This document shows, in pieces, positions 1-21,565 of a stretch of DNA of 32,000 bases. The DNA lies in the NCBI RefSeq assembly GCF_000015025.1, contig NC_008578.1, positions 450,001 through 482,000 of the forward strand, given 5' to 3'. The stretch comes from Acidothermus cellulolyticus 11B (GTDB lineage Bacteria; Actinomycetota; Actinomycetes; Acidothermales; Acidothermaceae). The notes beneath the pieces are model-generated. The model had not been told where the DNA came from. It searched no databases and was given only the letters and a program-made list of their open reading frames with translations. Every line of letters begins with the position of its first letter. The first letter of the stretch is position 1. Both the position numbers and the translations under genes were made by a program.

Positions 1-2355
1 CCCTCCGCGCTTGCCGGGATCGTCGCAACCGTTGCGGGCAGCCTGATCGCAACGGTTGGTCATCCGGCGACCGCGCATGCCGCGACGCCGCAGCGGCAAG
101 CCTCTGGTTGGATCACCTATTGGCAGACCGGTTCGACGACCCAGGTCGCCAACAACGGGGATCTTTTCTCGGACGTGTCCGTCTTCTGGTTTCACGCGGC
201 CAGTGCCACGTCGATCGTGCCGTCGGGAAGTACGCCGGACAGCGTGCTGCAATCCACGATCGCTGCTGTACGGTCCCGCGGCGTGCCGGTGACGATTACT
301 GTGACGGACGGCACCGGCAGCGGTGTGATGGCCTCGATTCTCTCCAATCCGACGACCCGCACGCAGCACGAGCAAGCGCTGCTGGCGCTCGCCACACGTT
401 ATGGGGCGAGCGGTATTGACCTGGACTACGAAAACATGGCGGTGTACGCCAACTCCAATCCGGCGCTCGTGCAACCGACCCGGACGGGTTTCGATGCGCT
501 GGTGCAGGAGCTGTCGACGTTGCTGCACCAGCACGGGATGATTCTTGCCGTTGATGTCATGTCGAAGACCAGCGAACCGGGCGCGACCCCGGCCGGCCAG
601 GTGTACGACTACCCGACAATCGGCCGGTGGGCGGACCGGGTGCGCATCATGACCTACGACCAGCATTCCGCCGGTTCGGCGTACCCGGGCGGGCCGATCA
701 GCTCGATCTCCTGGGTGCAGACCATCTTGAATTTCGCGGTCACCGTCATCCCGCCGCGGAAGATTTTCATGGGGGTGCCGCTGTATGGCTACGACTGGGC
801 CAGTACCGGCGGCCGGGCGAAGGCCGTCACCTACCCGCAGGTGGTGAACCTGGTCGCTCAGTATCACGCGACGCCGCGGTGGTCAGCGCCGGACGGGGAA
901 CCGTATGTCACGTACACGGACGCCAGCGGTGTCCAGCATTCGGTCTGGTACAACGACGCCAATGCGTTGCAGGCGCGGCTTCCGCTGGTCGGCAAGTACG
1001 GGCTCGGCGGGGTTGCCTTCTGGTCGTTCGGCGATGAAGATCCCGGCATCTGGTCGATACTTCGTGCCGCGACATATGGGCCGAATCCGTTCGGCAATTT
1101 CGAACAGGCAGTGCTCTGGCCGGGTGGGGTGCGGTTGACCGGCTGGGCGATCGACCCGAACACGGCGTCGTCCATCAACGTCGACGTGTACGTCGACCGC
1201 GTGATGGTGCAACGCGTTCTGGCGTCTGGAAACAGGCCGGACGTCGGCACCTTCTACTACGTGTACGGCAGCGCGCACGGTTTCGACACGGTGATCCCGC
1301 TGCACGCCGGGACGTACACGATCTGCGTGTATGGCATCAATGTCGGGCTGGGGGATACGAATTCGCAGCTCGGCTGCCGGACGGTGACGATGCCCACGAA
1401 CAATCCGGTTGGCAATTTCGAAGCCGCCGGCGGTGCGTACGGCGTCCTCACCGTCTCCGGTTGGACGCTCGACCCGGACACCGCTGACCCGATTTTCGCC
1501 CACGTATATGTCGACGGACAGTTGCGTACGATCACCCTGGCGAACGGGAACCGGCCGGACGTCGCCGCTGCGTTTCCCGGATGGGGCGCGGCCCACGGAT
1601 TTTCCGCGTCGGTGACCGTGACCGGCGGCACGCACACGGTCTGTGTGTACGGCATCAACGTCGGCTTCGGAACGGTGAATCCGCAGCTGGGGTGCAAGAC
1701 CGTATCGGTGAGTTCCGGCAATCCGGTCGGCAATTTTGAGTCCGTCACCGGCGGGTTGGGGACGCTCACCGTAAGTGGCTGGACGATTGATCCGAATACA
1801 CCGGCGCCGATCGACGTGCACGTGTATGTCGACGGCCGATTCGCCGGCAGCGGAACCGCGAACGCGAATCGGCCGGACGTCGGAGCGGCGTTCCCGTCGT
1901 ACGGTCCGGATCACGGTTTTGCGGTCACCGTGGGTGCGCCGAGCGGAACCCATACGGTCTGTGTGTACGCCATCAATGTCGGCCCGGGTGAAGCGAATCC
2001 GCCATTGGGATGCCGGCAGGTGTCTGTCGCCAACGCCAATCCCATCGGCCACCTGGACACCGTGACTCGCAACGGCAACCAGTTCGTCGCCCAGGGTTGG
2101 GCGATTGACCCGAACACCGCCGATCCGATCGACGTCGTCGTGTATTACCTGGGCGGTTCCAGCCCGGCGGCCACCGGAACCGCCGACCTGCCCCGGCCCG
2201 ATGTGGCCGCGGTTTTCCCGGCGTACGGGCCAAATCACGGTTTCGCCATCGACGTACCGGCGCAACCGGGCGGCGGCGTGCTGTGCGCCTTCGGGTTGAA
2301 CGTGGGACCCGGTGACGCGAACGGCTTCCTCGGCTGCCTTTCCGTGCCGCAGTGA
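1..2355 (+). CDS. Secreted glycosyl hydrolase family 18 protein (YaaH/CFLE-like chitinase fold) with four C-terminal tandem repeat domains. The 5' end is cut by the window edge.
   Basis: Frame 1 is open from nt 1. The residues before the listed Met at 175 read ALAGIVATVAGSLIATVGHPATAHA, which looks like a signal-peptide h-region plus an AxA site, so the true start lies upstream of the window. The GH18 catalytic motif SGIDLDYE is at 412-432. MTYDQHS and GGVAFWSFGDED motifs are typical of GH18. Stop codon is at 2353-2355. Confidence 0.85.
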   Translation, partial: PSALAGIVATVAGSLIATVGHPATAHAATPQRQASGWITYWQTGSTTQVANNGDLFSDVSVFWFHAASATSIVPSGSTPDSVLQSTIAAVRSRGVPVTITVTDGTGSGVMASILSNPTTRTQHEQALLALATRYGASGIDLDYENMAVYANSNPALVQPTRTGFDALVQELSTLLHQHGMILAVDVMSKTSEPGATPAGQVYDYPTIGRWADRVRIMTYDQHSAGSAYPGGPISSISWVQTILNFAVTVIPPRKIFMGVPLYGYDWASTGGRAKAVTYPQVVNLVAQYHATPRWSAPDGEPYVTYTDASGVQHSVWYNDANALQARLPLVGKYGLGGVAFWSFGDEDPGIWSILRAATYGPNPFGNFEQAVLWPGGVRLTGWAIDPNTASSINVDVYVDRVMVQRVLASGNRPDVGTFYYVYGSAHGFDTVIPLHAGTYTICVYGINVGLGDTNSQLGCRTVTMPTNNPVGNFEAAGGAYGVLTVSGWTLDPDTADPIFAHVYVDGQLRTITLANGNRPDVAAAFPGWGAAHGFSASVTVTGGTHTVCVYGINVGFGTVNPQLGCKTVSVSSGNPVGNFESVTGGLGTLTVSGWTIDPNTPAPIDVHVYVDGRFAGSGTANANRPDVGAAFPSYGPDHGFAVTVGAPSGTHTVCVYAINVGPGEANPPLGCRQVSVANANPIGHLDTVTRNGNQFVAQGWAIDPNTADPIDVVVYYLGGSSPAATGTADLPRPDVAAVFPAYGPNHGFAIDVPAQPGGGVLCAFGLNVGPGDANGFLGCLSVPQ
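1084..2352 (+). repeat. Four in-frame tandem coding repeats of about 318-328 nt (about 106 aa) forming the C-terminal half of the GH18 protein
   Basis: Units start at 1084, 1402, 1720 and 2048. Each carries NP(V/I/F)GNFE, GW(A/T)(I/L)DP(N/D)T, a (Y)VD(G/R) strand, NRPDV, HGF, GTHTVCVYGINVG and LGC, giving two conserved Cys per unit. The fourth unit is the most diverged. Confidence 0.85.
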
Positions 2356-2475
2356 CACCTGTCACGACGACGGCAGCGACGTGCCGCACCGGCTTGCCGA
2401 GCGCGGAGTTTGCCGGCAGGGTGGATGACGCAGAAGTGCACGGCACCGGCGGGCTGACATGACACGGGAGGGACG

Positions 2476-3378
2476 GTGGTCGACGAGAAGGCCGCCCGGC
2501 CTCGGGTTCTGGTGGGCCGGATCCGGAGTGCGTATGACCGGCTTCCGGCGGGTGTGCGGATTTTCGGCGGTGCGGTTCGTGAGTTCAGCGACCATCGGTG
2601 CACCCTGCTCGCGGCAGCGCTGGCGTATCACGTGCTTTTCTCGTTCTTTCCACTCGCCCTGGTGGCGGTGGGAATCGTCGGCTTGGTCAGTAGTGACCCT
2701 GCGGTGCGGAACGAGGTGGCCACTCGGATCGTCGGCATCGTGCCGCTGAACACCGCCGGCCGGGATCAATTGGCGAATCTGTTGACCTCCATCGCCGGCG
2801 CCCGCGGCGCGATCGGGTTTGTCGGTCTGGCGGGTTTGTGGTGGTCGGCCAGCGGTGTGATGGGCGCGCTCCGGGGCGGGCTGAATCAGGCGTTCGACGT
2901 GACGGCCAAACGTCGATTCTGGCGAGCGAAATTCCTGGACCTGGTCTTGGTGCTCGGGGCCGTGGTCGTGGTCGGTGTGTCGTTCGGGGTGACGATTCTG
3001 GTCGGCATTTTCCAGCACATTGCGCATCGCTTGCCGGGTGTGCTTGCGGACGCGGGTAGCTGGTTGGTCGATACCGGCGGCCTTGGCATCGCCTTGCTGT
3101 TCATCTTCACGATGTGTCTGTTGCTCTACCGCTACGTACCGGTTCAGTCGTCGCGGATCGTGGATCTGTGGCCCGGCGCGCTGGTCGCCGCCGTCGGTCT
3201 GGAGGCGCTGCAGTACGGGTTTGCTTTCTATCTCTCGAACTTCGGTCACTACAACCGGGTGTACGGGACGCTCGGCGGAATCGTCGCGTTCCTCTTCTTC
3301 GTGTACGTCGCCGGTGCGGTGTTCTTCTTCGGCGCGGAGGTTGCCGACGGGTACGCCCGCTACCGGCTCCGGCGGTAG
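2476..3378 (+). CDS. YihY/BrkB (virulence factor BrkB / RNase BN-like) family inner membrane protein
   Basis: GTG start is preceded by GGGAGGGA. The N-terminal signature LAAALAYHVLFSFFPLALV is followed by multiple hydrophobic helices and a C-terminal FFFGAEV motif typical of the family. Confidence 0.8.
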   Translation: MVDEKAARPRVLVGRIRSAYDRLPAGVRIFGGAVREFSDHRCTLLAAALAYHVLFSFFPLALVAVGIVGLVSSDPAVRNEVATRIVGIVPLNTAGRDQLANLLTSIAGARGAIGFVGLAGLWWSASGVMGALRGGLNQAFDVTAKRRFWRAKFLDLVLVLGAVVVVGVSFGVTILVGIFQHIAHRLPGVLADAGSWLVDTGGLGIALLFIFTMCLLLYRYVPVQSSRIVDLWPGALVAAVGLEALQYGFAFYLSNFGHYNRVYGTLGGIVAFLFFVYVAGAVFFFGAEVADGYARYRLRR

Positions 3379-3422
3379 GCGGCATTCCACGTCGCCGACG
3401 TCGTCCACTGCACCGGTGGTGC

Positions 3423-4589
3423 CTACGGCCGCGCTTCCCGCGGAGGGCGGAGTGCGCGGACGTGCCGGCGTTTGCGCAGCAGGGCCGGCAGGGCGGTGAG
3501 GACGCCGGCCGCCACCCGCAGGCGGAGCCGGACGGAGAAATTCGGCGTCGCGGGGACGGACATTCCGATGAGCCTCCGGAGCGGCAGCAGCAAAGTAATC
3601 GCAAGGAACCGGAGAAATTCCCAGCCTGCCCGCCATATCGGGGCGCAGGTGATGAGCATCCACAGTCGATTCCGCTCGTTGTAGAAGGCGAACATCGGCG
3701 AGCGGGGGTCGGTTGAGGCGGCGTGCTCGTGCCGTACCACCGCCTCGGGCACGTAACGGATCGCCCAACCGGCTCGACGCAGCCGCCACGACAGCTCGGT
3801 GTCCTCGTAGTACAAGAAGAAATCCGGGTCGAACGATCCGACGGCACGTGCGGCGGAGACGCGGATCGCGGCCGCCGTCCCCGAAAATGCCGGCACGTCA
3901 CGGTCGGTGTCGTACCGCCCGTCGTCCGGTTCACCGAATCCGCGGTCCCGGCCGTAACCGTCCGGGCCGATGAGCACGCCGGTGTTGTTGAGCAGGCCGC
4001 TGTCCGCGAAGACGACTTTGCTGGTGGTCGCCGCAATTCGCTCGCCGCCGGGTTCGGCGAACGGCCGCATCAACGCGGCGAGCCAGCCGGGAGCAACGAC
4101 GGTGTCCTGGTTCAGCACGACGACGAACGGGGTTTGCGCGTGGCGTATCGCGAAATCGGCGGCGCCGGCGAATCCCCGGTTGGTGTCGAGGCAGACCAGC
4201 CGGGGTTGCAGCGGATGGGCTGCGGCCAGCGCGGTGGTGTTGTCGGTCGAGGCGTTGTCGATGACCCAGATCTCCGGCTCGATCTGCCGGCCGCGGTTGT
4301 CGGTGACCCGTTGGGATGCGAGGGCGTCCAGGCAGCGGTCGATGAACCGGGCGCCGTTCCACGTGATCACAGCGATGGTGACCCTCGGCACTTCGGCCGG
4401 ACTGGGCGATTCGCCCGCCCCGGGGACGGTGTCCGGCCGAGCGACGGTGTCCCGGTTGGCCGAATCGCCCGGCTTAGGGACGCCGTCCGGTGCGGGCGCT
4501 CCGGCCGATTCGGGCTGGGTCATGGCGGCATCATCCCTGAGGTCCGTGATTGCCGGCAGCGGCGGAGGTGCTCCGGCCCCGACCGGCAC
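3423..4589 (-). CDS. Family 2 glycosyltransferase (WbbL/GlfT-like, rhamnosyl/galactofuranosyl-transferase type) with a C-terminal hydrophobic tail
   Basis: GT2 motifs are VTIAVITWNG, VIDNASTDNT, NRGFAGA, LNQDTVV and FFLYYEDTELSWRLRRAGW. The N-terminus is low complexity and Pro/Ala rich. The start is uncertain; an alternative ATG at 4523 gives MTQPESAG. Confidence 0.85.
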   Translation of the reverse strand: MPVGAGAPPPLPAITDLRDDAAMTQPESAGAPAPDGVPKPGDSANRDTVARPDTVPGAGESPSPAEVPRVTIAVITWNGARFIDRCLDALASQRVTDNRGRQIEPEIWVIDNASTDNTTALAAAHPLQPRLVCLDTNRGFAGAADFAIRHAQTPFVVVLNQDTVVAPGWLAALMRPFAEPGGERIAATTSKVVFADSGLLNNTGVLIGPDGYGRDRGFGEPDDGRYDTDRDVPAFSGTAAAIRVSAARAVGSFDPDFFLYYEDTELSWRLRRAGWAIRYVPEAVVRHEHAASTDPRSPMFAFYNERNRLWMLITCAPIWRAGWEFLRFLAITLLLPLRRLIGMSVPATPNFSVRLRLRVAAGVLTALPALLRKRRHVRALRPPREARP

Positions 4590-4604
4590 CTTCGCGACCC
4601 CCCA

Positions 4605-4700
4605 GCCCGACCCCGCTCCGGCCCATCCCGGCCCGCCCCGCTCCGACCCCCCGGGCCCGGCCCCGCTCCGACCCCCCGGGCCCGGCCCCGCTCCGGCCCG
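4605..4700. repeat. GC-rich imperfect tandem repeat (25-nt unit CCCCGCTCCGACCCCCCGGGCCCGG, about 2.5-3.5 copies) in a divergent intergenic region
   Basis: Two exact units lie at 4635-4659 and 4660-4684. Degenerate copies (CCCCGCTCCGGCCC) flank them at about 4610 and 4685. The repeat lies between the divergently transcribed GT2 (minus) and GT4 (plus) genes. Confidence 0.75.
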
Positions 4701-4822
4701 TTCTGGCGCGGCGCGGCCGCGCCGCCTGTCCGGACGACCAGGCGTAAGCTACGTCACAGTGCTGGTCGCACTCCAAGGTTGTCGTCAGACCAGCGGATCG
4801 TGACTGTCGAGGTGAAACGACC

Positions 4823-5953
4823 GTGGCGCCGAGAGTGCTCATCGACGCCACCGCTGTTCCCGCTGACCGGGGTGGTCTCGGGCGGTATGTCGACGGTTTG
4901 CTCGCCGCGCTCGGCGCGCTCGGCGCGGACGTCGCCGTCGTCTGCCAGCGGGTGGACGCCGAGCGGTACGGCCGGATGCTGCCCAATGCGCAGATCGTCG
5001 CCGGGCCGGCGTCGTTGGCGAATCGCACCGCGCGGCTGGCCTGGGAGCAGACCGGCCTCCCGCTGATCGCCGAACATGTCGGGGCACGGGTGCTGCACAC
5101 CCCGAATTACTCCGTGCCGCTGCACTCCCCGGTGCCGGTGGTGACGACCATCCACGACGCGACGTTCTTCAGCGAACCGGAGTTGTACCCGGCGGCCCGG
5201 GGTGCGTTTTACCGGGCGGCGATTCGGTCGGCGGTCCGGCGGGCGTCCCGGTGCATCGTGCCGTCGAAGGCGACCCGCGAGGAGTTGGTCCGCCTCCTCG
5301 AAGCCGACCCGACCCGGATCGACGTCGCGTATCACGGTGTTGACCACGCGATTTTCCACCCGCCGAGCGACGCGGAGCGGGCGCACATTTTCGCCCGGCT
5401 GGGGCTGCGCGACCAGCAGTATGTGGCGTTTCTCGGCGCGTTCGAGCCGCGGAAGAATGTGCCGAGCCTGGTCCGCGGCTGGGTGCAGGCGGTCAAGGAC
5501 ATGGAGAAGCCCCCGGCGCTCGTCATCGCCGGCGGCGCGGGCTGGGACGACGACATCGACGCCGCGATCGCCGAGGTGCCGGCGCACCTGCGGGTGATCC
5601 GGCCGGGATATTTGCGCATCGCCGATCTCGCCGGCTATTTGGGCAGTGCGGAGGTGGTGGCTTTTCCCAGCCACGGCGAAGGGTTCGGTCTACCGGTGTT
5701 GGAGGCGATGGCCTGCGGCGCTGCGGTGCTGACGACGTACCGGCTCTCGCTGCCGGAGGTCGGCGGTGACGCCGTGGCGTACACCGAGCCGGACGCCGTG
5801 TCGATCGGCCGGGCGCTTGCGGCTCTGCTCGCCGACCCGGATCGTCGCCGCGCGCTCGGCGAGGCCGCGTATCGCCGGTCGTTGGAGTTCAGTTGGACGG
5901 CGAGCGCGGAGGCGCATCTGGCGAGCTATGAGCGGGCCGCAGGGGAGGCGTGA
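4823..5953 (+). CDS. Family 4 (GT-B, GT1-type) glycosyltransferase, mannosyltransferase-like
   Basis: GTG start. The N-terminus is VLIDATAVPADRGGLGRYV. The C-terminal domain carries the FPSHGEGFGLPVLEAMACGAAVLTT signature (E-x7-E region) of GT4 enzymes. Confidence 0.85.
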   Translation: MAPRVLIDATAVPADRGGLGRYVDGLLAALGALGADVAVVCQRVDAERYGRMLPNAQIVAGPASLANRTARLAWEQTGLPLIAEHVGARVLHTPNYSVPLHSPVPVVTTIHDATFFSEPELYPAARGAFYRAAIRSAVRRASRCIVPSKATREELVRLLEADPTRIDVAYHGVDHAIFHPPSDAERAHIFARLGLRDQQYVAFLGAFEPRKNVPSLVRGWVQAVKDMEKPPALVIAGGAGWDDDIDAAIAEVPAHLRVIRPGYLRIADLAGYLGSAEVVAFPSHGEGFGLPVLEAMACGAAVLTTYRLSLPEVGGDAVAYTEPDAVSIGRALAALLADPDRRRALGEAAYRRSLEFSWTASAEAHLASYERAAGEA

Positions 5954-6065
5954 CCTCATAGCCGAGTTCGCGCAAGGCCTCCGCGGCGGCGGCCGGGAAG
6001 TCGCGTGCCTGCCGGCGTGGGACTTTCCCGGCGGGCCGGGACACGGGGACCGCTAGGCTGCGCCC

Positions 6066-8675
6066 GTGCGCGTGCTTCACGTCACCTCGTCGTTCCCCCG
6101 ACATGATCAAGACTTCATAGCCCCGTTTTTACTCGACCTTATGCATGCGCAGCAGCAGGCCGGGATCGACGTGATGGTCGTCGCGCCACACGACGCCACG
6201 GTCAGTCAGTACGCCGCGGTGAGCCCGGACCCCCCGATCGGTCCGGACGCCACGGTGAGCCCGGACGCCGCGGCTGCGGCGGCTGCGCCCGCCCGGCCGA
6301 GCCCCAGCCCCGACACCCGCCCGGACCCCAGCCCCGACGCCCGCCCGCGCCCCAGCCCCGACGCCCGCCCGCCGGGCCGCCGCCCGGATACCCACGGCAC
6401 GGTCGCTGGCGTGCGGGTGCGCTGGTTCCACTACGCACCGGCCGGCCTCGAACGGCTCGCCTACCGTGGGGGACTCCTCGCCGCGGCACGGTCCCCGGCG
6501 GCGCTGCTCATTCCGCCGTTCCTGGCCGCGATGACCGCCGCGGTTCGCCGCGCGACCCGCGACTTCCAGCCGGACCTCATTCACGCCCACTGGTGGTTCC
6601 CCGCCGGTTTCTGCGCCCTCCCGGCCAGCCGCCGCTCCGGCCGGCCGCTCGTCATCACCGCGCACGGCTCGGACCTCCACCTCCTCCGCTTCCCGCCGCT
6701 GCGCCCGCTGGCCCGCGCCGTGCTCCGCCACGCCGCGCTCGCCACCGCCGGCAGCGCCGCCGCTTTTACGGGCGCGGGCGGCGGTGGTATCAGCTCGGCC
6801 GGCTCGGTGACCGTTTATCCCGGGTTGACCGGCCAGGCGCTCTCCAACGTCACGGTCAGCCTGCCGGACGCGAGCGGCGCCGGCTGGTCCGCTGGTGACT
6901 TTCTCACCTTCACGTTGACCAGCGCCGCGGCTAGCACGCCCCACGTCTGCCAGACGTCGAGCAACCTCAACGAGTCGGCCTCGCTGGCGGCTCCGACGGT
7001 GACCGCGGCGAATAGCGGCACGTCGGCGGCGTTCACCGGGTTCACCGTGACCCAGGGGTCGAGTAGCACGTGCAATGTCAAGGACTCTTTTACAATCGCT
7101 TTGACCAGTGGCGCGCCCAGTGACACGAATAACACGGTGTTCACGATTTCGGGTTTGTCGTTGACCCTGGGCTCGGCCATCGCTCCGGGCACGCCTGTGT
7201 ACGTGTACGTGACGGCGAGCAACGGCACGCCGTTCGGAGCAGGCACCGTCGATGCCGCCGCGCAGGTGGCGACGGTGTCGGACGTGTCGGTGAGCACGAG
7301 CGTGGTCGGTGCGACGCCCGGCGCGACGGTAGCGATTAATCCAATCGTGGTCACCGACTACGCTCGCGGCACCATCAACACGCAGATTCAGTTCAAGCTC
7401 GCGACTTCCGGTGTCACTGACAAATTCGCGACGGCGGGCACGTTGACCGCGCCGTCCGGGGTGACTTTCACCGGGCCGAGTGAGACGCTGCCATCGAGCA
7501 CGCTGACGTATAAGATTACTGGTTCGGTTCCGGCGGGTGGCAAGTTCACCCTGACCGGCGCCACCGTCACAGTGGACGCCACACAGCCCGCCACCCTAGC
7601 TGATCACGTGGTGCAGGTATGGACCGGTTCGACGCTCGGTCAGGTGGGTCCGAACGCGAATGTCGTGGTCGTCGCGAACACGTCGCGTACCTACGCCGGT
7701 GTTGACCGGTACGCTACGTCGGCCGCTTTGTTCGCCGCCAACCACAACAGCTACGCGGTGGTCGCGAGTGGGATGAGCTACGCGGACGGGCTGTCGGCTG
7801 ATGTGCTGGCTGCGCATCTGGGTACCGGTGTGTTGTTGACGGATCCGAATTCGTTGCCGGACTCGACTCGGCAAGCGCTGATCAACAATGGTGTTGCGAT
7901 CGTGTACATCGTGGGTGGCACGTCGGCGGTGAGCGCGAATGTGGAGTCGCAGATCGCCGCGCTGCACGTGTCGAACAACCCGGCCAACCCGTTGATCACC
8001 GTGTATCGGATCGCCGGCAGTGACCGGTACCAGACCAACATGCAGGTCAACCTCACGGCTGGTCCGACCGGCGGCCGGGCGATTATCGCGACGGGCACGA
8101 ATTTCGCGGACGCCCTGGCGGTGAGCCCGGAGGTCTACTCCCAGCACTACGCGCTGGTTCTCACCGACCCGAATTCGTTGAGCTCGACCGCGCAGAGCAC
8201 GCTGACGGACCTGGGTATCACGAATGTGATCATCGTGGGTGGCACGTCGGCGGTGTCGGCGAATGTCGAGTCGCAGTTGAAGAGCGATGGGTTCACGGTG
8301 CTGTACCGGATCGCCGGTGCGGATCGGACCGGGACCGCGGCGCAGATCGCGATCTGGGCGACCGCTGGACTGTCGGCGGCCAACGGGTACAACGCGCTGG
8401 ACACTGGCGGCCTGGCAACGTTCAAGGGCGCTGCCAATATGGCCACGGTTGAGTTGACGCGTGGGGATGCGTTCCCCGACGCTCTGTCCGCCGGCCCGGC
8501 GGTTGGGAACGCGGGTCACGTGCTGCTGCTCACCGCTAACCCGACCACGCTCGGGTCTGGCGCCGGCCAGTACCTGGGCGGCAAGGCGCGCACTGTGACC
8601 ACCTTCGACGCGATCGGCTACTCGGCGGCGGTCAGCCCGTCGGTGCTCACCGCGGCGATCGCGGCGCTCGGCTAA
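6066..8675 (+). CDS. Chimeric ORF joining a GT4 N-terminal domain only to a Ser/Thr/Ala-rich S-layer-like region and three C-terminal CWB2 cell-wall-binding repeats. It may be a fusion or pseudogene, or a surface-protein gene with an unrecognised internal start.
   Basis: Residues 1 to about 225 (MRVLHVTSSFPRH..., IHAHWWFPAGF, ITAHGSDLH) match a Glyco_trans_4 N-domain, but no C-terminal EX7E Rossmann domain follows. From about nt 6750 the sequence changes to T/S/A/G/V-rich beta-type sequence. Three DRY/DR-containing CWB2 units then follow. It is a single uninterrupted frame. Confidence 0.6.
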   Translation: MRVLHVTSSFPRHDQDFIAPFLLDLMHAQQQAGIDVMVVAPHDATVSQYAAVSPDPPIGPDATVSPDAAAAAAAPARPSPSPDTRPDPSPDARPRPSPDARPPGRRPDTHGTVAGVRVRWFHYAPAGLERLAYRGGLLAAARSPAALLIPPFLAAMTAAVRRATRDFQPDLIHAHWWFPAGFCALPASRRSGRPLVITAHGSDLHLLRFPPLRPLARAVLRHAALATAGSAAAFTGAGGGGISSAGSVTVYPGLTGQALSNVTVSLPDASGAGWSAGDFLTFTLTSAAASTPHVCQTSSNLNESASLAAPTVTAANSGTSAAFTGFTVTQGSSSTCNVKDSFTIALTSGAPSDTNNTVFTISGLSLTLGSAIAPGTPVYVYVTASNGTPFGAGTVDAAAQVATVSDVSVSTSVVGATPGATVAINPIVVTDYARGTINTQIQFKLATSGVTDKFATAGTLTAPSGVTFTGPSETLPSSTLTYKITGSVPAGGKFTLTGATVTVDATQPATLADHVVQVWTGSTLGQVGPNANVVVVANTSRTYAGVDRYATSAALFAANHNSYAVVASGMSYADGLSADVLAAHLGTGVLLTDPNSLPDSTRQALINNGVAIVYIVGGTSAVSANVESQIAALHVSNNPANPLITVYRIAGSDRYQTNMQVNLTAGPTGGRAIIATGTNFADALAVSPEVYSQHYALVLTDPNSLSSTAQSTLTDLGITNVIIVGGTSAVSANVESQLKSDGFTVLYRIAGADRTGTAAQIAIWATAGLSAANGYNALDTGGLATFKGAANMATVELTRGDAFPDALSAGPAVGNAGHVLLLTANPTTLGSGAGQYLGGKARTVTTFDAIGYSAAVSPSVLTAAIAALG
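6302..6373 (+). repeat. Three tandem 24-nt coding repeats (CCCCAGCCCCGACRCCCGCCCGNN) encoding P-S-P-D-x-R-P inside the GT4 N-domain
   Basis: Units lie at 6302-6325, 6326-6349 and 6350-6373. They translate as PSPDTRPD/PSPDARPR/PSPDARPP. Related VSPD repeats precede them at about 6195-6270. Confidence 0.85.
7692..8672 (+). other. Triplet of CWB2 (putative cell wall binding repeat 2, PF04122-like) domains at the C-terminus of the 6066-8675 ORF
   Basis: Units start at 7692 (YAGVDRYATSAA), 8004 (YRIAGSDRYQTN) and 8304 (YRIAGADRTGTA). Each has (F/Y)ADAL/DGLSA, a LLT(D/A)PN stretch and IVGG(T)SAVS. A 48-nt stretch encoding IVGGTSAVSANVESQ is nearly identical at 7908-7955 and 8232-8279. Confidence 0.75.
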
Positions 8676-8708
8676 CCGCTGAGACCCACGCCAAAACGCA
8701 CGAACCAC

Positions 8709-8738
8709 GTGGGCCCGGGGCAACCGCCCCGGGCCCAC
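8709..8738. terminator. Intrinsic terminator hairpin between convergent genes
   Basis: A 12-bp perfect GC-rich stem, GTGGGCCCGGGG / CCCCGGGCCCAC, has the 6-nt loop CAACCG. It is followed by CGGTTTTAT on the plus strand and preceded by a GCGTTTTGG complement usable on the minus strand. Confidence 0.7.
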
Positions 8739-8753
8739 CGGTTTTATCTGGGC

Positions 8754-8787
8754 GGTTTTGGGGTGACGCTGGCGTCCCCCCAAAACC
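8754..8787. terminator. Second hairpin in the convergent intergenic region, a possible terminator for the minus-strand dehydrogenase gene
   Basis: GGTTTTGGGG pairs with CCCCAAAACC. An inner GACGC-TG-GCGTC stem extends the helix. U/A-rich stem ends occur on both strands. Confidence 0.5.
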
Positions 8788-8806
8788 ACATCCCAACCGC
8801 CGGCTC

Positions 8807-9811
8807 TCACCCCGCCGGGATGAGAGCTACCTTCGCTCGGGAACCGCTGCCTTCGCGGAGTGCCGCGAAGGCAGCCGCATACGCCTGGAGCGGGAATCGG
8901 TGTGTCACAAGGAAACCCAGATCCACGCTGCCCGCGTTGAGGAGGTCGACGACCCGGCGCCACGCCGTCCGCGTGTAACCAAAACTTCCAGCGATGGTGA
9001 GATCGCCGTTGACGACGTCGTCCACCGGCAACTCCGCACCCGGCGGGCCACCCAGGTAGCCAAGGAGAAGCACCACCCCGCCGCGGCGCACCGCGGCGAA
9101 CGCCGTCCGCACCGCCGCCGCACTCCCGGCCGCCTCGACCACGAGATCAAAATGACCCGCCGGCACAGCCTCGGTATCCACCGTGAACTGATCCGCACCA
9201 GCGCTGGCGGCCAGCCCGGCCTGCTCGGTCCGCCGGCCAAGGAGGGTCACCTCACTGGGCGACCACAGGTGCGCCAACCGTGCCGCCAGCAAGCCGATCG
9301 TCCCATCGCCGATCACTAACACCCGCCATCCCGGAACAGGCGAGACCCGGCTCAGCCCGGTGAAGACCACCGACGCCGGTTCGGTGAGCACGGCCGACTC
9401 CTCGGAGACTTGAGGCGCTAGCGGATGCACGAGATGCGCCGGCGCACGCACCAGCTCCGCCGCAGCGCCGTAACGGGTGAACCCCAGCTCGTCGTAGGTG
9501 TCGCATCGATTTGTTGCGCCGGCCGCGCAGGCGGTGCATCTACCGCACGGCACGATCCCCTCCACGACGACCCGCGTACCGGCGGCCAGGCCACCGCGTC
9601 CCGGTTCGGCCACCACACCCGTCCACTCGTGACCGAGCACCATCGGGTAGCGGATGAAGAGGGGATCCACCCGACCGTCGACGATGTCCACATCCGTTCC
9701 GCAGATGCCGACGAGGGTCGGACGCACCAGCACCTCCTCGGCGCCAGGCACGGGGTCGGCCACCTCGGCGAGCTCGATCGCTCCGGGTTCGCGGACCAAC
9801 AGAGCGCGCAT
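8807..9811 (-). CDS. Zinc-dependent medium-chain alcohol/polyol dehydrogenase (sorbitol/threonine dehydrogenase-like)
   Basis: Motifs are GICGTDVD, GHEWTGVV, a structural-zinc Cys cluster CGRCTACAAGATNRC, and the Rossmann motif VIGDGTIGLL. The preferred start is ATG 9811, preceded by GAGGTG. The listed ORF start at 9832 would overlap the IclR gene. Confidence 0.85.
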   Translation of the reverse strand: MRALLVREPGAIELAEVADPVPGAEEVLVRPTLVGICGTDVDIVDGRVDPLFIRYPMVLGHEWTGVVAEPGRGGLAAGTRVVVEGIVPCGRCTACAAGATNRCDTYDELGFTRYGAAAELVRAPAHLVHPLAPQVSEESAVLTEPASVVFTGLSRVSPVPGWRVLVIGDGTIGLLAARLAHLWSPSEVTLLGRRTEQAGLAASAGADQFTVDTEAVPAGHFDLVVEAAGSAAAVRTAFAAVRRGGVVLLLGYLGGPPGAELPVDDVVNGDLTIAGSFGYTRTAWRRVVDLLNAGSVDLGFLVTHRFPLQAYAAAFAALREGSGSRAKVALIPAG

Positions 9812-9813
9812 GG

Positions 9814-10629
9814 TCACCTCGCGTGTTCCCACTCGGCCGGCAGCGTGCCGCCGAGCACCTTCGTCAGCTGTTCCGCTCCGAGCCGCACCACGTCGCCTAG
9901 CTCCTGCAGCCGCCAGGTCGGCACCCCAACCTTCACCCCGGTCGCCGAGAGCGCGCCTCCGCAGCGCCCTCGATGGTCGAAGAACGGTGCAGCGACACAG
10001 AAAACACCGTCGACGTCCTCCTCGTCATCGATCGCGTAGCCCCGGCGCCGTGTCATCGCCAAGTCGTGCAGCAGGGTGGGGACGTCGCAAATGCTCTTGG
10101 CCGTGCGGCGCGGCAGACCGCACTCCTCGGCAATCCGCCGGACCTCTGCATCCGTCAGGGTGGCCAGAATCGCCTTCCCGGCGGCGGAGGTGTGCGGCAG
10201 TTCGCGCACCCCCAGCGGGGCGTGAAACCGCACCGCATCCAACGCGTCAATCCGCTCGACGAAGACGGGATAACCGTCGTCCGCAATCGCCAAGCGGATG
10301 GTGAGCCGGGTCTCCTCGCTGAGCTTGCGGAGAATCGGCGCCGCCATCTCGGTCAGCGGAAACTGCCGCGCCGCGACATCCCCCAGGTGCACCAACACGA
10401 TTCCCAACGTGTACCGGGGGCCCGGTTCGATGGCGCGCAGATAACCAGCGTCGACCAACGTCCGGACCAGACTGTGCGTGGCGCTCTTCGACAGACCGCA
10501 GGCGTGGGCCAGCTCGCTCAGGGTGGACCCTTGCGCCGACCCCTGTGCCACGGTTGACACGATCTGCAGCGCACGCCACACGCTCCCCACCCGGTAGCGG
10601 GCGGTGTCATCGGTGTTCGGCATGGACAT
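9814..10629 (-). CDS. IclR-family transcriptional regulator
   Basis: The N-terminus has a winged HTH (LSELAHACGLSKSATHSLVRTL). The C-terminus has an IclR effector domain (GVFCVAAPFFD). The stop lies 2 nt before the dehydrogenase start, so the two genes probably form one operon. Confidence 0.85.
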   Translation of the reverse strand: MSMPNTDDTARYRVGSVWRALQIVSTVAQGSAQGSTLSELAHACGLSKSATHSLVRTLVDAGYLRAIEPGPRYTLGIVLVHLGDVAARQFPLTEMAAPILRKLSEETRLTIRLAIADDGYPVFVERIDALDAVRFHAPLGVRELPHTSAAGKAILATLTDAEVRRIAEECGLPRRTAKSICDVPTLLHDLAMTRRRGYAIDDEEDVDGVFCVAAPFFDHRGRCGGALSATGVKVGVPTWRLQELGDVVRLGAEQLTKVLGGTLPAEWEHAR

Positions 10630-10738
10630 ATCGTATGCGGTATCGCACGACAGATGTGGGTCGCCGTCCCGTTACCGATTCGTAGCCGAGAGAAAGCCCG
10701 TAGCTGCTTGACGAGCCGAGCGTCGTCTGCTTCGCTAA

Positions 10739-10752
10739 CAATTACGTAATTG
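10739..10752. promoter_or_regulatory. Perfect 14-bp palindrome CAATTACGTAATTG in the IclR/M24 divergent intergenic region, a candidate IclR operator
   Basis: It sits in an AT-enriched stretch 30 nt upstream of the 10782 start. An adjacent CCGAA-N5-TTCGG inverted repeat lies at 10753-10767. Confidence 0.4.
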
Positions 10753-10781
10753 CCGAACTGCATTCGGTATTACAGAACGGA

Positions 10782-11966
10782 GTGGTATTGGACGTCAACC
10801 GGGCAACCGCGGCCGCCGCCCGGCTCGCCGCGCTGCGAGAGCACGTCGGAGTTCCGGGCATCGTGCTCACCACCCCGGGCAACGTTGCCTGGCTCACCGG
10901 CGGTGCCAACACGCCCATCGACCGCGGCGCAACCACCGACGTCATCTGGGCGGTCGCGACCCCGGACCACATAGCGATCATCACAACCGAGGTTGAAGCG
11001 CCCCGATTGGCCGATGAAGCGGCATTCGGTTCCCTCGGTTGGCCTATCCACGCGGTGCCGTGGTGGGAGCCCGCCATGTTCGTCGCCAAGGCCGAAGCGA
11101 TTGCCGGCGTTCATGCGGACCGCCTCGCCGCCGACGGGCACCCTGCCTTCGGACTCGACCTCGCCGTCCACCTCGTGCGCACCCGCATGGCCCTCACACC
11201 GCCCGACGTCGCGGCCCTTGCCCGGCTGGGCACAGACGCCGCCGCAGCCGTCAGCGCCGCGCTTCGCGCCTGGCAACCCGGGGACACCGACCGTACGATC
11301 GCCGCTCGGATCGCCGCGGATCTCGAAGAGGTCGGGGCATTTCCCACCGTTCTCCTCGTCGGCGGCGACGACCGCCTCCAGCGCTACCGGCACCCGGTCA
11401 CCGTTGGTGCTCCGCTCCACGACGTCGTCATGACCGTGCTCGTAGCGGTCCGCGGCGGCCTTCACGTCGCCCTCACCCGCTACGCCGCCCGCACCCCGCC
11501 GCCCACCGAGTGGCGGGACCGGCTCAACGCCGTCCGGCGGATCCACCGGGCTGTCCTCGACGCCTGCTGGCCCGGACGCACGGTCGGTGCGGCCCTCCAA
11601 GCCCTTGCCGCGGCCTACGCGGCCGAGGGCGCCCCCGACGCCTGGCGCCAGCACTACCAAGGCGGGCCGATCGCCTACGCGCAGCGGGAGTACGAACTCG
11701 CCCCGGTGCAGACCACGGACCAGTGGTGGAGTCACGTCCTCACCTCCGACACGGCGGTGGCGTGGAATCCCAGCCTCCCCGGCGGTGCGAAGGACGAAGA
11801 CACCTACCTCATCACCCCCGCCGGACCCCGCCTCCTCACCACCTGCACGGAATGGCCCATGACCAACGACGACGTGCCGCGACCCGACGTCTGGGTCATC
11901 GACGGCACCCCGCCGAGCGGCGAGCGACAGCAACAGCCGTTGCCCATCGGCACGTCGCCGCCGTGA
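10782..11966 (+). CDS. M24-fold (creatinase/Xaa-Pro peptidase-like) protein with an apparently degenerate metal site
   Basis: The N-terminal domain is creatinase-like (RLAALREHVGVPGIVLTTPGNVAWLTGG). A pita-bread C-domain is recognisable, but the canonical D, D, HxxGH and E ligand positions appear substituted (TVLVAV, VALTRY, HYQGG, WNPS). The start could be GTG 10782 or TTG 10788. Confidence 0.7.
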   Translation: MVLDVNRATAAAARLAALREHVGVPGIVLTTPGNVAWLTGGANTPIDRGATTDVIWAVATPDHIAIITTEVEAPRLADEAAFGSLGWPIHAVPWWEPAMFVAKAEAIAGVHADRLAADGHPAFGLDLAVHLVRTRMALTPPDVAALARLGTDAAAAVSAALRAWQPGDTDRTIAARIAADLEEVGAFPTVLLVGGDDRLQRYRHPVTVGAPLHDVVMTVLVAVRGGLHVALTRYAARTPPPTEWRDRLNAVRRIHRAVLDACWPGRTVGAALQALAAAYAAEGAPDAWRQHYQGGPIAYAQREYELAPVQTTDQWWSHVLTSDTAVAWNPSLPGGAKDEDTYLITPAGPRLLTTCTEWPMTNDDVPRPDVWVIDGTPPSGERQQQPLPIGTSPP

Positions 11967-12019
11967 CCACCCCACCACGGAGCACGCCGCGCCCTCTCAC
12001 CCGTACGGAAGGACACACC

Positions 12020-12940
12020 ATGCGAGCTGATGCACTGCTCCGGGCGGCAAACATCCCCGCCGAGTCGGGGATTGCGCCGAGCAGCAAGAAATTCCCAGAC
12101 GGCGCCGATTTCCGCATCGAAATTCCCTCCGTCGAAGGCCCGGCGGTGCTGGCCGCCGTCATCGACGAAGCCGAGCGTCGCGGCGTCGTCGTCAACCGTG
12201 TCTCCCAGGGCAGCGGTGCGATGCTCCTGACCGAAGCCGAGCTGCGTGATATGGCCGCCATCGGCCGTGACGCCGGACTGGAAATTTCCCTCTTCGTCGG
12301 ACCGCGCGAAGAATGGGGAATCGGCGCCCAGTCCCGCGGCGTCGACGGAGCCGCGCTCAGCGGATCCATTCGCGGACTGCGGCAATTGCGGTATGCGGTC
12401 GAAGACGTGCTCCGCGCCGTGGAGTGCGGCATCCGCGGATTCCTTGTCGCCGATCCCGGGCTGCAGCGGTTTCTCTCCCGGGCGCAAGACGCCGGCGATA
12501 TTCCCGCCGATGTGGTCTGGAAGACGTCAGCGGTGAGCGCGCCGTCCAATCCACTGACCCTCCAACTTCTGGTGGACATCGGCGCCGACACCGTCAACCT
12601 GCCCACTGACCTGACGCTGGCCGAACTCGCCGAAATGCGTGCGGTAGCGGACATCCCGCTCGACCTGTATGTCGAATCGCCGGATGCGATGGGCGGTGTG
12701 GTGCGCGGGGAACAACTCGCCGACCTGGTGAGCGTCGCCGCACCGCTGTACGCCAAATTCGGGTTACGCAATTCCCGTCCGCTCTATCCCTCGGGGCTCC
12801 ACCTGCAAGATGACGCGGCCGTCATCGCCAGGGAGAAAGTACGCCGCGCGCAACTCGCCTTGGAATGGCTGGAGCGTACCGGCTCCCACGCGATCCAGTC
12901 GAAACCCGGCGCCCTCGGTTTGGGAATCCCGGTGCCATGA
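12020..12940 (+). CDS. Hypothetical protein of 306 aa with a predicted alpha/beta (TIM-barrel-like) pattern
   Basis: ATG at 12020 is preceded by GGAAGGA at 12007-12013. The upstream part of the listed 11039-12940 ORF is Arg/Pro-rich out-of-frame overlap with the M24 gene. The stop overlaps the next start (ATGA at 12937-12940). I recognise no confident family. Confidence 0.65.
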   Translation: MRADALLRAANIPAESGIAPSSKKFPDGADFRIEIPSVEGPAVLAAVIDEAERRGVVVNRVSQGSGAMLLTEAELRDMAAIGRDAGLEISLFVGPREEWGIGAQSRGVDGAALSGSIRGLRQLRYAVEDVLRAVECGIRGFLVADPGLQRFLSRAQDAGDIPADVVWKTSAVSAPSNPLTLQLLVDIGADTVNLPTDLTLAELAEMRAVADIPLDLYVESPDAMGGVVRGEQLADLVSVAAPLYAKFGLRNSRPLYPSGLHLQDDAAVIAREKVRRAQLALEWLERTGSHAIQSKPGALGLGIPVP

Positions 12941-14697
12941 CCGCTGCTTCGAATTCGTCATCGCGTAACGCGCCGTTGCGCAGCGCCCGTTGGTTCGACG
13001 GCGACGACGACGTTGCCGTCGAACACCGCGCGGCGCTTCGCTCAGCGAACCCTGAGTTCCGTCCCGGCGGATCGCAGCCAGTGATCGGGATCGCGGACAC
13101 GTCAAGTGAACTCAACCCGTGCAATTTGCCGCTGCGCGGACTCATCCCCGACGTGGCGCAAGGAATTCACGACGCCGGCGGGATTCCGGTCACCCTCCCC
13201 GCCATGTCGCTGGGTGAAGACCTGATGAAGCCGACCGCGATGCTCTATCGCAATCTGCTGAGCATCGAAATCGAAGAATATCTCCGCGCCTACCCACTCG
13301 ACGGGATCGTGCTCCTCGCCAACTGCGACAAGACCGTGCCCGGCTCTGTCATGGGTGCCGTGAGCGCCAATTTCCCAACAATGATGCTCATCGGCGGTCC
13401 TCGGCCCATCCAAACATTCCGCGGACGCCGGATCGGCAGTGGTACCGCGTTATGGCGCGCCTTCGACCAGCACCGTTCGGGCGAGCTGGACGATGCCGCA
13501 TGGGCGGAATTTGAGCAGTGCCTGAGCTGCGGCCAAGGCGCGTGCAACACCATGGGCACAGCCGCCTCCATGGCCGTCGTCGTGGAAACCCTCGGCTTCA
13601 CCCTGCCTGGTACGGCGACGATGCCCGCCGACGACCCGGCCCGCCGGGCCGTCGCGCACGAGACCGGTCGCCGCGCGGTCGCCGCCGTCCGGGAGAACGT
13701 CCGACCCCGCGACCTCATCACCGGAATCAGTCTTCGCAACGCAATCCGCGCCCTCAACGCCTGCGGCGGCTCAACCAACGCGATCCTTCACCTCATCGCG
13801 ATCGCCCGGCGCGCCGGCAACGCCCTGTCACCAGCGGACGTCGCCGCCGCCGGCCGTGGCGTTCCGGTGCTCCTCGATATCGAACCGCACGGTCAGGGTC
13901 TCGTGCCGGATTTTCACGCGGCCGGCGGCGTCCCGGCGATCCTTGCCACCCTCGGCGATTTCATCGACCGCTCTGCGCTCGCCGGAAATGGCGAACCGTG
14001 GTCGCGCGTCCTGCGGAATGCGCCGGTCGTCAACGAGACGACCGTCATCCGCCCGCTGGACGCGCCATTGCGATCCGACGGCGCTTTCGCCTTCCTGCAC
14101 GGCAACCTTGCACCGCGCGGCGCCGTACTGAAAACCGTCGCGGCGAGTGAGCGTCTTTTCCAGCACCGGGGTCCAGCCGTCGTTTTCCACGGCTACGACG
14201 ATCTGTGGTCGCGCATTGACGATCCAGATCTCGAGGTCACGCCGGAGAGTGTGCTCGTCCTCGCCGGATGTGGACCGATCGGCGGCCCCGGAATGCCTGA
14301 ATGGGGCATGATTCCCATCCCGAAGAAGCTGGCGAAAGCCGGCGTCCGTGACATGGTGCGCGTGAGCGACGCGCGCATGAGCGGTACGTCGTTCGGCACC
14401 TGTGTGCTCCACGTCGCACCTGAGGCCGCAATCGGCGGGCCGTTGGCGCTGGTCCGGGACGGTGACATCATCCACCTCGACGTCACCCGCGGCCGCCTCG
14501 ACGTGGAAATCAGCGAGGCGGAACTGCGGCGTCGCGCCGCCGAGTGGGTGACGCCGCCCAATCCCTACCGGCGGGGTTGGATCGCGCTGTACCGCGCCCA
14601 CGTCACCCAAGCCGACGAAGGCTGCGATCTCGATTTTCTCCAGCCCCGCACGCCGCAAGACATCGAATTCGTCGAACCCACCATCGGTCGTTCGTAA
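12937..14697 (+). CDS. IlvD/Edd-family sugar-acid dehydratase (aldonate dehydratase-like)
   Basis: Motifs are LANCDKTVPG, GACNTMGTAASM, GGSTNAILHLIA, a DARMSGTS loop and LRSARWF near the N-terminus. The start is ATG 12937, translationally coupled to the preceding gene. Confidence 0.85.
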   Translation: MTAASNSSSRNAPLRSARWFDGDDDVAVEHRAALRSANPEFRPGGSQPVIGIADTSSELNPCNLPLRGLIPDVAQGIHDAGGIPVTLPAMSLGEDLMKPTAMLYRNLLSIEIEEYLRAYPLDGIVLLANCDKTVPGSVMGAVSANFPTMMLIGGPRPIQTFRGRRIGSGTALWRAFDQHRSGELDDAAWAEFEQCLSCGQGACNTMGTAASMAVVVETLGFTLPGTATMPADDPARRAVAHETGRRAVAAVRENVRPRDLITGISLRNAIRALNACGGSTNAILHLIAIARRAGNALSPADVAAAGRGVPVLLDIEPHGQGLVPDFHAAGGVPAILATLGDFIDRSALAGNGEPWSRVLRNAPVVNETTVIRPLDAPLRSDGAFAFLHGNLAPRGAVLKTVAASERLFQHRGPAVVFHGYDDLWSRIDDPDLEVTPESVLVLAGCGPIGGPGMPEWGMIPIPKKLAKAGVRDMVRVSDARMSGTSFGTCVLHVAPEAAIGGPLALVRDGDIIHLDVTRGRLDVEISEAELRRRAAEWVTPPNPYRRGWIALYRAHVTQADEGCDLDFLQPRTPQDIEFVEPTIGRS

Positions 14698-14707
14698 ACA
14701 GGCACAC

Positions 14708-16066: not shown

Positions 16067-16072
16067 TCCGAA

Positions 16073-16108
16073 GAGGCTCGGTCGAGACAATTGTCTCGAC
16101 CGAGCCTC
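16073..16108. promoter_or_regulatory. Perfect 36-bp palindrome (18-bp arms) between the binding-protein and permease genes, either an intercistronic stem-loop or a protein site
   Basis: GAGGCTCGGTCGAGACAA / TTGTCTCGACCGAGCCTC starts 6 nt after the TGA at 16064-16066. No T-tract follows it. Confidence 0.7.
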
Positions 16109-16124
16109 CACCGGCAGACCGACC

Positions 16125-17078: not shown

Positions 17079-17102
17079 CCGGGCGGAAAGGACTCCCATC
17101 GT

Positions 17103-17981: not shown

Positions 17982-18006
17982 CGTCTACGATCCGACAGGA
18001 GTTGCG

Positions 18007-19380: not shown

Positions 19381-19584
19381 CCCGCTCAAGCCCAACCGCC
19401 ATGGGGCGTGGGGCGTCGACGGTCGCGCGGTCATGGTGTCGCTGCGTGCCGCGCGGCGACGATAGACTCACCGCGCAGGCAGCCGCCGCGCGGGCGGTTG
19501 GTGGTCCACGCCGCCGGTCGACTCGACGCGTGAGCTTCGCCGGTTGACGCTTCGGAGCTGCGCAGCCGGCGGGGAAGGGAGATT

Positions 19585-20481: not shown

Positions 20482-20488
20482 CCGGCGC

Positions 20489-21472: not shown

Positions 21473-21565
21473 CCGGTAGTGGGTTGGTGAACCCGGAGCG
21501 CCGGGAAGGCTGTCGGCATGAGCGTCGAAGCCGGCGGGCGCGGCCGAGGACGAGTGAGGTGATCC

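Follow-up and report, generated by a model that had tools for sequence, protein, structure and literature searches.

The nearest described counterparts of the surface protein considered here are SlpA and the Cwp proteins of Clostridioides difficile, in which a triple CWB2 anchor is fused to a surface-exposed variable domain. To our knowledge, CWB2-anchored surface proteins have hardly been studied outside the Firmicutes. A second described group that enters this account comprises the GT4 glycosyltransferases of the GT-B class, both TuaC-like enzymes and those found in WsaF neighborhoods, and a third consists of the microhomology deletions behind bacterial gene fusions and pseudogenes, in which a short direct repeat flanks the lost segment, one copy of the repeat is left, and neighbors on the same strand are merged. 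Such deletions, like the loss of surface proteins, are common. We analyzed a 32,000-nucleotide (nt) stretch of the Acidothermus cellulolyticus 11B genome (the window, to which all coordinates refer) in which one open reading frame (ORF) of 869 residues joins the N-terminal half of a GT4 enzyme to a CWB2 protein (Table 1). At a probability of about 0.6, we consider that this ORF arose when a single in-frame deletion of 975 bp struck the lineage of the 11B culture that was sequenced, a genuine change that abolished function. Whether it came about by mutation or as an artifact, the ORF is deletion-derived and represents no natural domain architecture.

The make-up of the chimeric ORF was established by ORF calling and Pfam searches. 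Families of the GT4 N-domain (PF13439, E=3.6e-15; PF13579; PF13477) match residues 19–231, and three stretches in the C-terminal third match PF04122, the CWB2 family (E=2.6e-37). An earlier note, made from the letters of the DNA, had described a GT4 N-terminal half with a Pro-rich insert that runs on into a CWB2 protein, and the searches bear this description out. The same note held that the GT4 C-domain is missing, that GT4 homology ends at about nt 6720–6750, and that the ORF start is devoid of a classical signal peptide, and all three points stand. The C-domain families PF00534 and PF13692 find no match in the chimeric ORF by Pfam search, whereas the intact allele has both together with the EX7E motif. 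The breakpoint lies at nt 6738–6750, where the protein reads ...ARAVLRHAA/LATAGSAAAF (here and below, a slash marks a junction or a cleavage site). The ORF opens with a cytoplasmic GT4 domain and has no N-terminal secretion signal, which the intact alleles do have. No displaced copy of the GT4 C-domain was found elsewhere in the window. NCBIfam returned partial, sub-threshold matches to SlpA and TuaC. The database entries for the chimeric protein, WP_148204503.1 (869 residues), ABK52202.1 (833 residues), and a MetaClust entry (844 residues), differ solely in the start codon chosen. The Pro-rich insert is found in the intact alleles of close strains and not in distant orthologs from metagenome-assembled genomes (MAGs) of Acidothermaceae, whose matches to a 453-residue query span ≈1140 nt (≈380 residues), and it is therefore a recent, lineage-specific expansion within the enzyme domain.

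The missing DNA can be read from relatives in which both genes are intact. In L001, a contig from ENA with 94–95% nucleotide identity to the window, a GT4 gene is followed by a 192-nt spacer, a CWB2 gene (673 residues), and an ADH gene on the opposite strand. Positions 212–941 of this contig align to window 6019–6750 and positions 1904–5508 to window 6738–10349. Because these matches flank a gap and overlap by 13 nt, the window is short of exactly 975 nt, or 325 codons. Near-clonal loci were fetched with the protein of the first GT4 gene, upstream of the chimeric ORF (window 4823–5950), as an exact-match probe, which yielded 20 contigs; four of them are practically identical to the window (runs SRR11077863, 72, 73, and 76). 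Near-clonal L100, L103, and L108 have zero substitutions over window 1–6737 and encode an intact 454-residue GT4 enzyme with EX7E, and L100 differs from the window in this span solely by having one unit less of a 25-nt tandem repeat (4635–4659). The intact enzyme of L100 (positions 11244–12605) matches PF00534 and PF13692 (E=9e-30 and 4e-32), carries the EX7E motif REGLGLVAVE, and includes the same Pro-rich insert as the window ORF. Beyond it, L100 includes the 192-nt spacer and the first part of the CWB2 gene, and its match to the window resumes at 6738–7011 with 100% identity.

The ends of the missing segment coincide with a short repeat. In both L001 and L100 the pair CTCGTCACCGCCG / CTCGCCACCGCCG stands 975 nt apart, and the window has a single CTCGCCACCGCCG. 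The two copies form an imperfect direct repeat that agrees at 12 of 13 positions, CTCG[T/C]CACCGCCG. Since the window retains the right-hand version, the strictly shared bases are CTCG (6738–6741). The lost DNA comprises GT4 codons 225–454 with the stop codon, the whole 192-nt spacer between the GT4 and CWB2 genes, and the beginning of the CWB2 gene, which amounts to 30 codons if the called ATG is taken as the start and to 26 if the start is the GTG that stands behind GGAGG. At the protein level, the window reads ...ARAVLRHAA/LATAGSAAAFTGAGGGG, the stand-alone CWB2 proteins P0002 and P0017 read MEVRVNVVSRRFRRASVAGLAAFVTAGVAV/LATAGSAAAFTGAGGGG, and the GT4 protein P0012 reads ...ARAVLRRAAVVTAVSEAL; aligned with one another, these proteins place the join inside the signal peptide of the surface protein. 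Of the three explanations that the earlier note had offered, the first, a deletion that fused two genes, is thus supported by an exact in-frame loss of 975 nt between imperfect 13-nt direct repeats.

The two genes are separate wherever else they were found. All 12 of the other homologs are stand-alone CWB2 proteins or full GT4 enzymes: the homologs of the C-terminal 640 residues stand alone with an N-terminus of their own (640–702 residues), and the sole homolog of the N-terminal part among the protein matches is a complete GT4 enzyme. Sixteen contigs of ≈2.2 kb, from seven SRA runs and nine IMG datasets, encode an intact CWB2 precursor of 675 residues; every one aligns to the window from exactly nt 6738 (99.85%) and matches L100 without a difference over the spacer and signal region that they share. 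L099, L104, and L105 (92–98% identity in the flanks) likewise have a complete second GT4 gene with a separate CWB2 gene behind it, and L021 holds the intact GT4 gene only. At greater distance (41–59% protein identity), L002 and at least 10 MAG loci of Acidothermaceae type have a full GT4 gene 200–250 nt upstream of a separate CWB2 gene that is read from the same strand. A fused ORF turned up neither among the protein matches and the environmental contigs nor among the 77 loci of the genome comparison, a set from which the 11B genome itself is absent. Exact look-ups of the fused protein in its 869-, 844-, and 833-residue forms found it in no other recorded assembly. When the 36 nt to the left of the junction were used to scan JGI metagenomes, a single contig came back, and its GT4 gene is intact. 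As far as these sequences tell, GT4 followed by CWB2 as separate genes is the conserved arrangement in every relative examined.

One course of events would account for the junction. The ancestral locus, as displayed by relatives, held a complete gene for a 454-residue GT4 enzyme, the 192-nt spacer with the promoter region, 5′ untranslated region (UTR), and ribosome-binding site, and a gene of its own for the secreted CWB2 protein. The two copies of CTCG[T/C]CACCGCCG would then have undergone slippage or illegitimate recombination, with loss of the catalytic C-domain of the GT4 enzyme, of the spacer, and of the signal peptide's n-region along with most of its h-region. The surface protein would now be transcribed from the GT4 promoter only. 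With the GT-B fold halved and the donor-binding domain gone, the GT4 half should be unable to bind its nucleotide-sugar donor. With a 224-residue cytoplasmic domain in place of the export signal, the surface protein should no longer be secreted. Because both halves would be disabled, the allele would amount to a double null, an unrecognized pseudogene annotated as a normal protein, and its most likely product would be a non-exported, non-functional chimera.

Base substitutions peculiar to the reference bear on whether this deletion took place in the living lineage. The CWB2 remnant differs from the 16 intact-gene contigs at exactly three sites, all of them missense and all adding positive charge (Table 1). 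The change at nt 8589 is the only difference from the near-clonal contigs over window 8495–16102, and comparison with them over window 16076–30447 reveals one further substitution, at nt 24320, a synonymous GCC>GCA change in a DUF2142 gene. The three missense changes are derived in 11B, since L001 has the other residue at these sites; the near-clonal strain is ancestral at all four sites and has no derived change of its own. With three missense changes in 1938 nt, as against one synonymous change in 28.5 kb (30.4 kb compared), the clustering is significant (Fisher P=0.001). Each of the four substitutions is derived in 11B and is a G:C transversion; GGC>CGC accounts for two of them. Pseudogene decay was considered on the basis of the three nonsynonymous changes out of three and was set aside, as this proportion is not significant alone (P≈0.15) and the clustering is the significant signal; the intact alleles evolve at a dN/dS of ≈0.42. 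Neutral decay after the deletion would be too slow to explain the cluster, so that either selection acted before the surface protein was lost or errors or artifacts are confined to this part of the reference. The three missense changes suggest that selection in the 11B lineage favored an altered or lost surface protein, with laboratory propagation and phage pressure as possible causes.

The strongest rival explanation is an artifact of the reference: the 975-bp deletion, and perhaps the base changes, would have arisen in E. coli clones or PCR products, and living 11B would have two normal genes. We regard this as rather unlikely. It is what is left of the third explanation in the earlier note, an assembly join, since a join of unrelated DNA is refuted by the intact loci, where the two sides are neighbors, and only a narrower clone or PCR artifact is possible. 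Several observations weigh against a genuine deletion. The fused allele is known from the reference sequence alone; contigs that otherwise match 11B in full over ≈28 kb carry the locus intact, with the ancestral base at all four variant sites, and the near-clonal strain shares none of the five 11B-specific changes, as would also be expected for errors or clone artifacts. The spectrum, all G:C transversions with two GGC>CGC changes in a G+C-rich context, is unusual for spontaneous mutation. Neutral decay cannot yield three extra hits so fast, and a real deletion would need selection on the gene beforehand. Non-export and loss of function, for their part, are what we infer for the chimera. The lost piece, moreover, is the promoter and signal-peptide part of a surface gene; E. 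coli often tolerates this part of S-layer (surface-layer) genes poorly, and such deletions can arise when a polymerase jumps from one short repeat to another in G+C-rich DNA. Microhomology deletions are, however, equally typical of real mutations. The concentration of differences in one gene (P=0.001) also fits an artifact, but three point errors plus a deletion within 2 kb would be an exceptional local failure, and the further reference-specific change far off, at nt 24320, points to a real lineage that has diverged a little and away from a locally bad sequence. Coverage by multiple clones and very low error rates are the rule for finished isolate genomes, of which we take the 11B record to be one; a 13-nt repeat is too short to mislead read-based assembly.

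A genuine deletion might still have left a functional surface protein. Translation from the internal GTG at nt 6720 could in principle export it under the GT4 promoter, with the residual MLRHAALATAGSAAA/F serving as a short signal peptide. The frame is kept (975 = 3 × 325), the downstream ORF is free of stop codons and frameshifts, and behind the GTG come a basic residue, a short run of Ala and Leu, and an intact AxA cleavage motif. The hydrophobic core, however, consists of ≈7 weakly hydrophobic residues: by hydropathy, the native signal peptide MNVVSRRFRRASVAGLAAFVTAGVAVLATAGSAAA/F reaches a KD9 of 2.41, as against 1.26 across the junction and 1.24 for the peptide that starts at the GTG. Direct reading of the 15 nt before this GTG revealed no Shine-Dalgarno-like run, whereas GGAGG lies 5 nt upstream of the native CWB2 start. 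The native promoter region and 5′ UTR are lost, and three radical substitutions fall at conserved small-residue positions. Rescue by this route is therefore improbable. The earlier note, too, had rated the GTG as only a weak signal-peptide candidate.

A genuine, selected fusion of a GT4 N-domain to a surface protein with a new function is very improbable, even though the ORF is long, open, in frame, and annotated as a protein, because the architecture occurs in no ortholog, even the near-clonal relatives keep the genes apart, only half of the GT-B fold is left, with no EX7E domain, and the wall-binding module is without an export signal. Orthologs that share the fused architecture, which the earlier note had named as evidence for a conserved fusion, were sought and none was found, and a conserved fusion was rejected on the searches of proteins, environmental contigs, and genome loci described above.

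Hardly any weight can be given, either, to a foreign surface gene inserted in the GT4 gene or to an assembly join of unrelated DNA. The observations that speak for such an origin are a fall in total GC at the junction, from 0.77–0.80 to ≈0.63 between nt 6750 and 6900 (a drop of ≈0.14), and a mature CWB2 part that is an allelic cassette, very different between strains. The fall lies mostly in GC at first codon positions (GC1), with values of 0.79 for the GT4 part against 0.57 for the CWB2 part, and it is explained by amino acid composition: the surface protein is rich in Thr, Ser, Asn, and Val, and the GT4 part in Pro, Ala, and Arg. At third codon positions, GC (GC3) goes from 0.88 in the GT4 part to 0.83 in the CWB2 part, with C falling from 0.56 to 0.40, G rising from 0.32 to 0.43, and T rising from 0.08 to 0.15. 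The value of 0.83 lies within the range of the other window genes (0.78–0.87), and the compositional outlier is the Pro/Ala/Arg-rich GT4 part. The shift in codon usage that the earlier note had seen near nt 6800 is thus real, but it is smaller than described and mainly driven by amino acids, with a slight change in GC3. The conserved gene order and the typical GC3 refute the second explanation in that note, a surface gene of horizontal origin inserted into a GT4 gene. The order GT4, CWB2, ADH is conserved in all relatives, the CWB2 gene occupies the same site in all of them with a codon composition typical of the region, and it does not have the marks of a horizontal island. Horizontal insertion was accordingly rejected on synteny and GC3, and a join of unrelated DNA on the intact loci, where the sides of the junction are neighbors exactly 975 nt apart. 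The composition shift reads as the border of two different native genes, with no foreign DNA.

The intact surface protein can be described from the undisturbed alleles. Its precursors have 671–675 residues, with a signal peptide of 35–39 residues, Ig-like β domains, and a triple-CWB2 wall anchor. An AlphaFold2 model of the intact protein (pLDDT 80, pTM 0.72) shows a disordered region at 1–35, corresponding to the signal peptide, an all-β region at ≈45–345, and an α/β region at 350–675, in which the CWB2 repeats are predicted to fold into a three-fold, prism-like anchor. The best Foldseek matches are C. difficile Cwp8, Cwp6, and SlpA SLPH chains (7acy_B, TM 0.68 when normalized to the target, root-mean-square deviation 3.5 Å), and a sequence search of the PDB with the CWB2 protein returned Cwp8, SLPH, and Cwp6. 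The β part has weak Foldseek matches to Ig-like, pilin, and adhesin structures. The intact protein is likely an S-layer protein. That it would bind an anionic secondary cell-wall polymer and form a two-dimensional lattice on the cell has only circumstantial evidence in its favor, namely the neighboring GT2, GT4, and WsaF-like genes. Literature searches on an Acidothermus S-layer, on the sequencing-run accessions, and on Acidothermus transcriptomes returned nothing relevant.

The ends of the environmental contigs bear on how the intact gene may be expressed. Ten of the 16 single-gene contigs (L005–L020) begin 16–30 nt past the GT4 stop codon, which is 175–189 nt upstream of the GTG start, and 12 of the 16 end 22–34 nt past the CWB2 stop codon (window 8697–8709), at the foot of a terminator-like hairpin (Table 1). 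Such near-shared ends in contigs from 16 datasets suggest an abundant monocistronic mRNA with a leader of ≈180 nt. A scan of the deleted spacer for the sigma-70 consensus found no promoter; by eye, a −10-like element, TAGGTT, can be read over the GT4 stop codon.

Between strains, the protein varies strongly in its mature part. Between the 11B type and L099, L104, and L105, the mature CWB2 protein (window 6757–8472) is ≈52% identical, with a dS of ≈1.1, and the GT4 gene, spacer, signal peptide, and 3′ flank of the same strains are 93–97% identical to the 11B type. By these comparisons, the gene acts as an allelic cassette over its mature part. The left edge of the divergent block (≈6757) is only 10–20 nt from the right breakpoint of the deletion. 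We tentatively propose, as an idea with somewhat less than even odds, that the surface-layer gene of 11B was hit repeatedly and specifically under strong selection, by phage or cultivation, against a CWB2-type S-layer, first by the three charge-adding missense changes at conserved Gly and Thr positions and then by loss of its promoter, its signal peptide, and the neighboring glycosyltransferase, and that the locus is an exchangeable cassette.

Table 1. Features of the chimeric ORF and its surroundings, in window coordinates
Feature	Position	Strand	Remarks
First GT4 gene, intact, 376 residues	4823..5953	+	Directly upstream of the chimeric ORF
Chimeric ORF, 869 residues	6066..8675	+	RefSeq WP_148204503.1; GenBank ABK52202.1 with a later start
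Remnant of second GT4 gene, N-terminal Rossmann-type domain, residues 1–224	6066..6737	+	Identical to residues 1–224 of the intact 454-residue GT4 of L100
Pro-rich insert inside the GT4 N-domain	6192..6372	+	Tandem repeats of 18 nt (6192–6273) and 24 nt (6290–6372)
Internal in-frame GTG, weak alternative start	6720..6722	+	Would give MLRHAALATAGSAAA/F, KD9 1.24
Deletion junction CTCGCCACCGCCG	6738..6750	.	Intact alleles: left copy CTCGTCACCGCCG, right copy CTCGCCACCGCCG, 975 nt apart
Surviving signal-peptide tail of the CWB2 protein, LATAGSAAA	6738..6764	+	Predicted cleavage AAA/F
Surface region in the mature CWB2 protein, all-β with Ig-like sandwiches, allelic-cassette part	6765..7694	+	≈52% identity between strains with 94–97% identity in the flanks
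11B-specific G>C, Gly240Arg (P0017 numbering)	7365	+	Column G in 10 of 11 homologs, A in 1 of 11
11B-specific C>A, Thr289Lys	7513	+	Column T, L, P, or A in 11 homologs
Three CWB2 repeats, cell-wall anchor	7695..8672	+	Nearest solved structures C. difficile SLPH, Cwp8, Cwp6
11B-specific G>C, Gly648Arg	8589	+	Column G or A in 11 homologs
Intrinsic-terminator-like hairpin, 13 bp (12 G-C) with T-run	8709..8738	+	34 nt past the stop codon

The surroundings of the CWB2 gene include GH18, BrkB, GT2, and first GT4 genes. Upstream of window nt 1, as seen in L099 (1–3258) and L100 (1–2226), lies the gene for a 1297-residue protein with GT2, WsaF_N/WsaF_C, and GT1 domains, followed by one for an 882-residue protein with a SpoIID domain and then by one for the GH18 protein; this cluster, beside the CWB2 gene, is of the S-layer-glycan or cell-wall-polymer type. 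The 25-nt tandem repeat (window 4598–4699, 4.1 copies) occupies the divergent spacer between the GT2 gene on the minus strand and the first GT4 gene on the plus strand, and either the number of copies truly varies or k-mer assembly has collapsed the one that is missing from the near-clonal contigs. In the interval that separates the two GT4 genes (window 6009/6019), L099 (11188–11844), L102, and L104–L107 have ≈650 extra nt with two small overlapping ORFs on the minus strand (96 and 74 residues) that have no Pfam match; this segment is not in 11B or its near-clones. In a more distant relative, L004 (10001–17071), a GT4 domain is fused to an LPG_synthase_TM domain in a protein of 761 residues, and two convergent CWB2 genes (883 and 725 residues) follow it; the LPG_synthase_TM homolog of the window is a separate gene at 20489–21472. 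Elsewhere in the window, a mechanically called ORF at 16091–17653 has an anomalously low GC3 (0.48) and is probably in the wrong frame; the overlapping ORFs at 16125–17078 and 17103–17981 agree with genes called in L119 (BPD_transp_1).

These results have consequences for annotation and for the biology of the organism. The RefSeq and UniProt entry named cell wall-binding repeat-containing protein is a deletion chimera that should be flagged as a pseudogene or fusion, and a GT4–CWB2 domain architecture should not be deduced from it. In the Acidothermaceae, the intact gene marks out a family of CWB2-anchored, Ig-like surface proteins whose alleles vary in the manner of cassettes. Should the deletion be real, 11B, the type strain of the only Acidothermus species in culture, is without its probable S-layer protein and the adjacent glycosyltransferase, which would bear on the cell envelope, on the secretion and display of enzymes, and on phage susceptibility, with the near-clones as a ready comparison pair. 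If selection was at work, the two would form a natural, nearly isogenic pair of S-layer-null and wild type. If the locus is a cassette, it would be the counterpart in the Actinomycetota of the S-layer cassette types of C. difficile.

Comparison with the described systems sets the 11B allele in context. As a microhomology deletion its mechanism is ordinary; what is special here is that the breakpoint falls inside a signal peptide, so that one gene loses its catalytic half and the next its promoter and export signal. The intact GT4 allele resembles other GT-B enzymes in having two domains with EX7E and an N-domain of the families PF13439, PF13579, and PF13477, and it is conserved directly upstream of the CWB2 gene; the window ORF differs in having the N-domain only, with the lineage-specific Pro-rich tandem-repeat insert. 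S-layers are known to be lost in cultured strains, and the situation in Acidothermus would be alike in that a cultured isolate has a null allele of a putative S-layer gene and its environmental near-clones are intact; it differs in that both the S-layer and an origin of the deletion in culture are only possibilities here. The intact surface protein is closest to C. difficile SlpA and Cwp, with which it shares a triple CWB2 anchor, here with a predicted prism-like fold, a variable domain exposed at the surface, and, in the intact alleles, a signal peptide, along with cassette-like variation between conserved flanks and a glycan-biosynthesis neighborhood. Its host, however, is an actinobacterium and not a firmicute, its surface part consists of Ig-like β sandwiches with no sequence similarity to SLPL, and there is no sign of SlpA-type cleavage, SecA2 dependence, or a lattice. 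The 11B allele departs further from the C. difficile proteins in that its signal peptide is missing.

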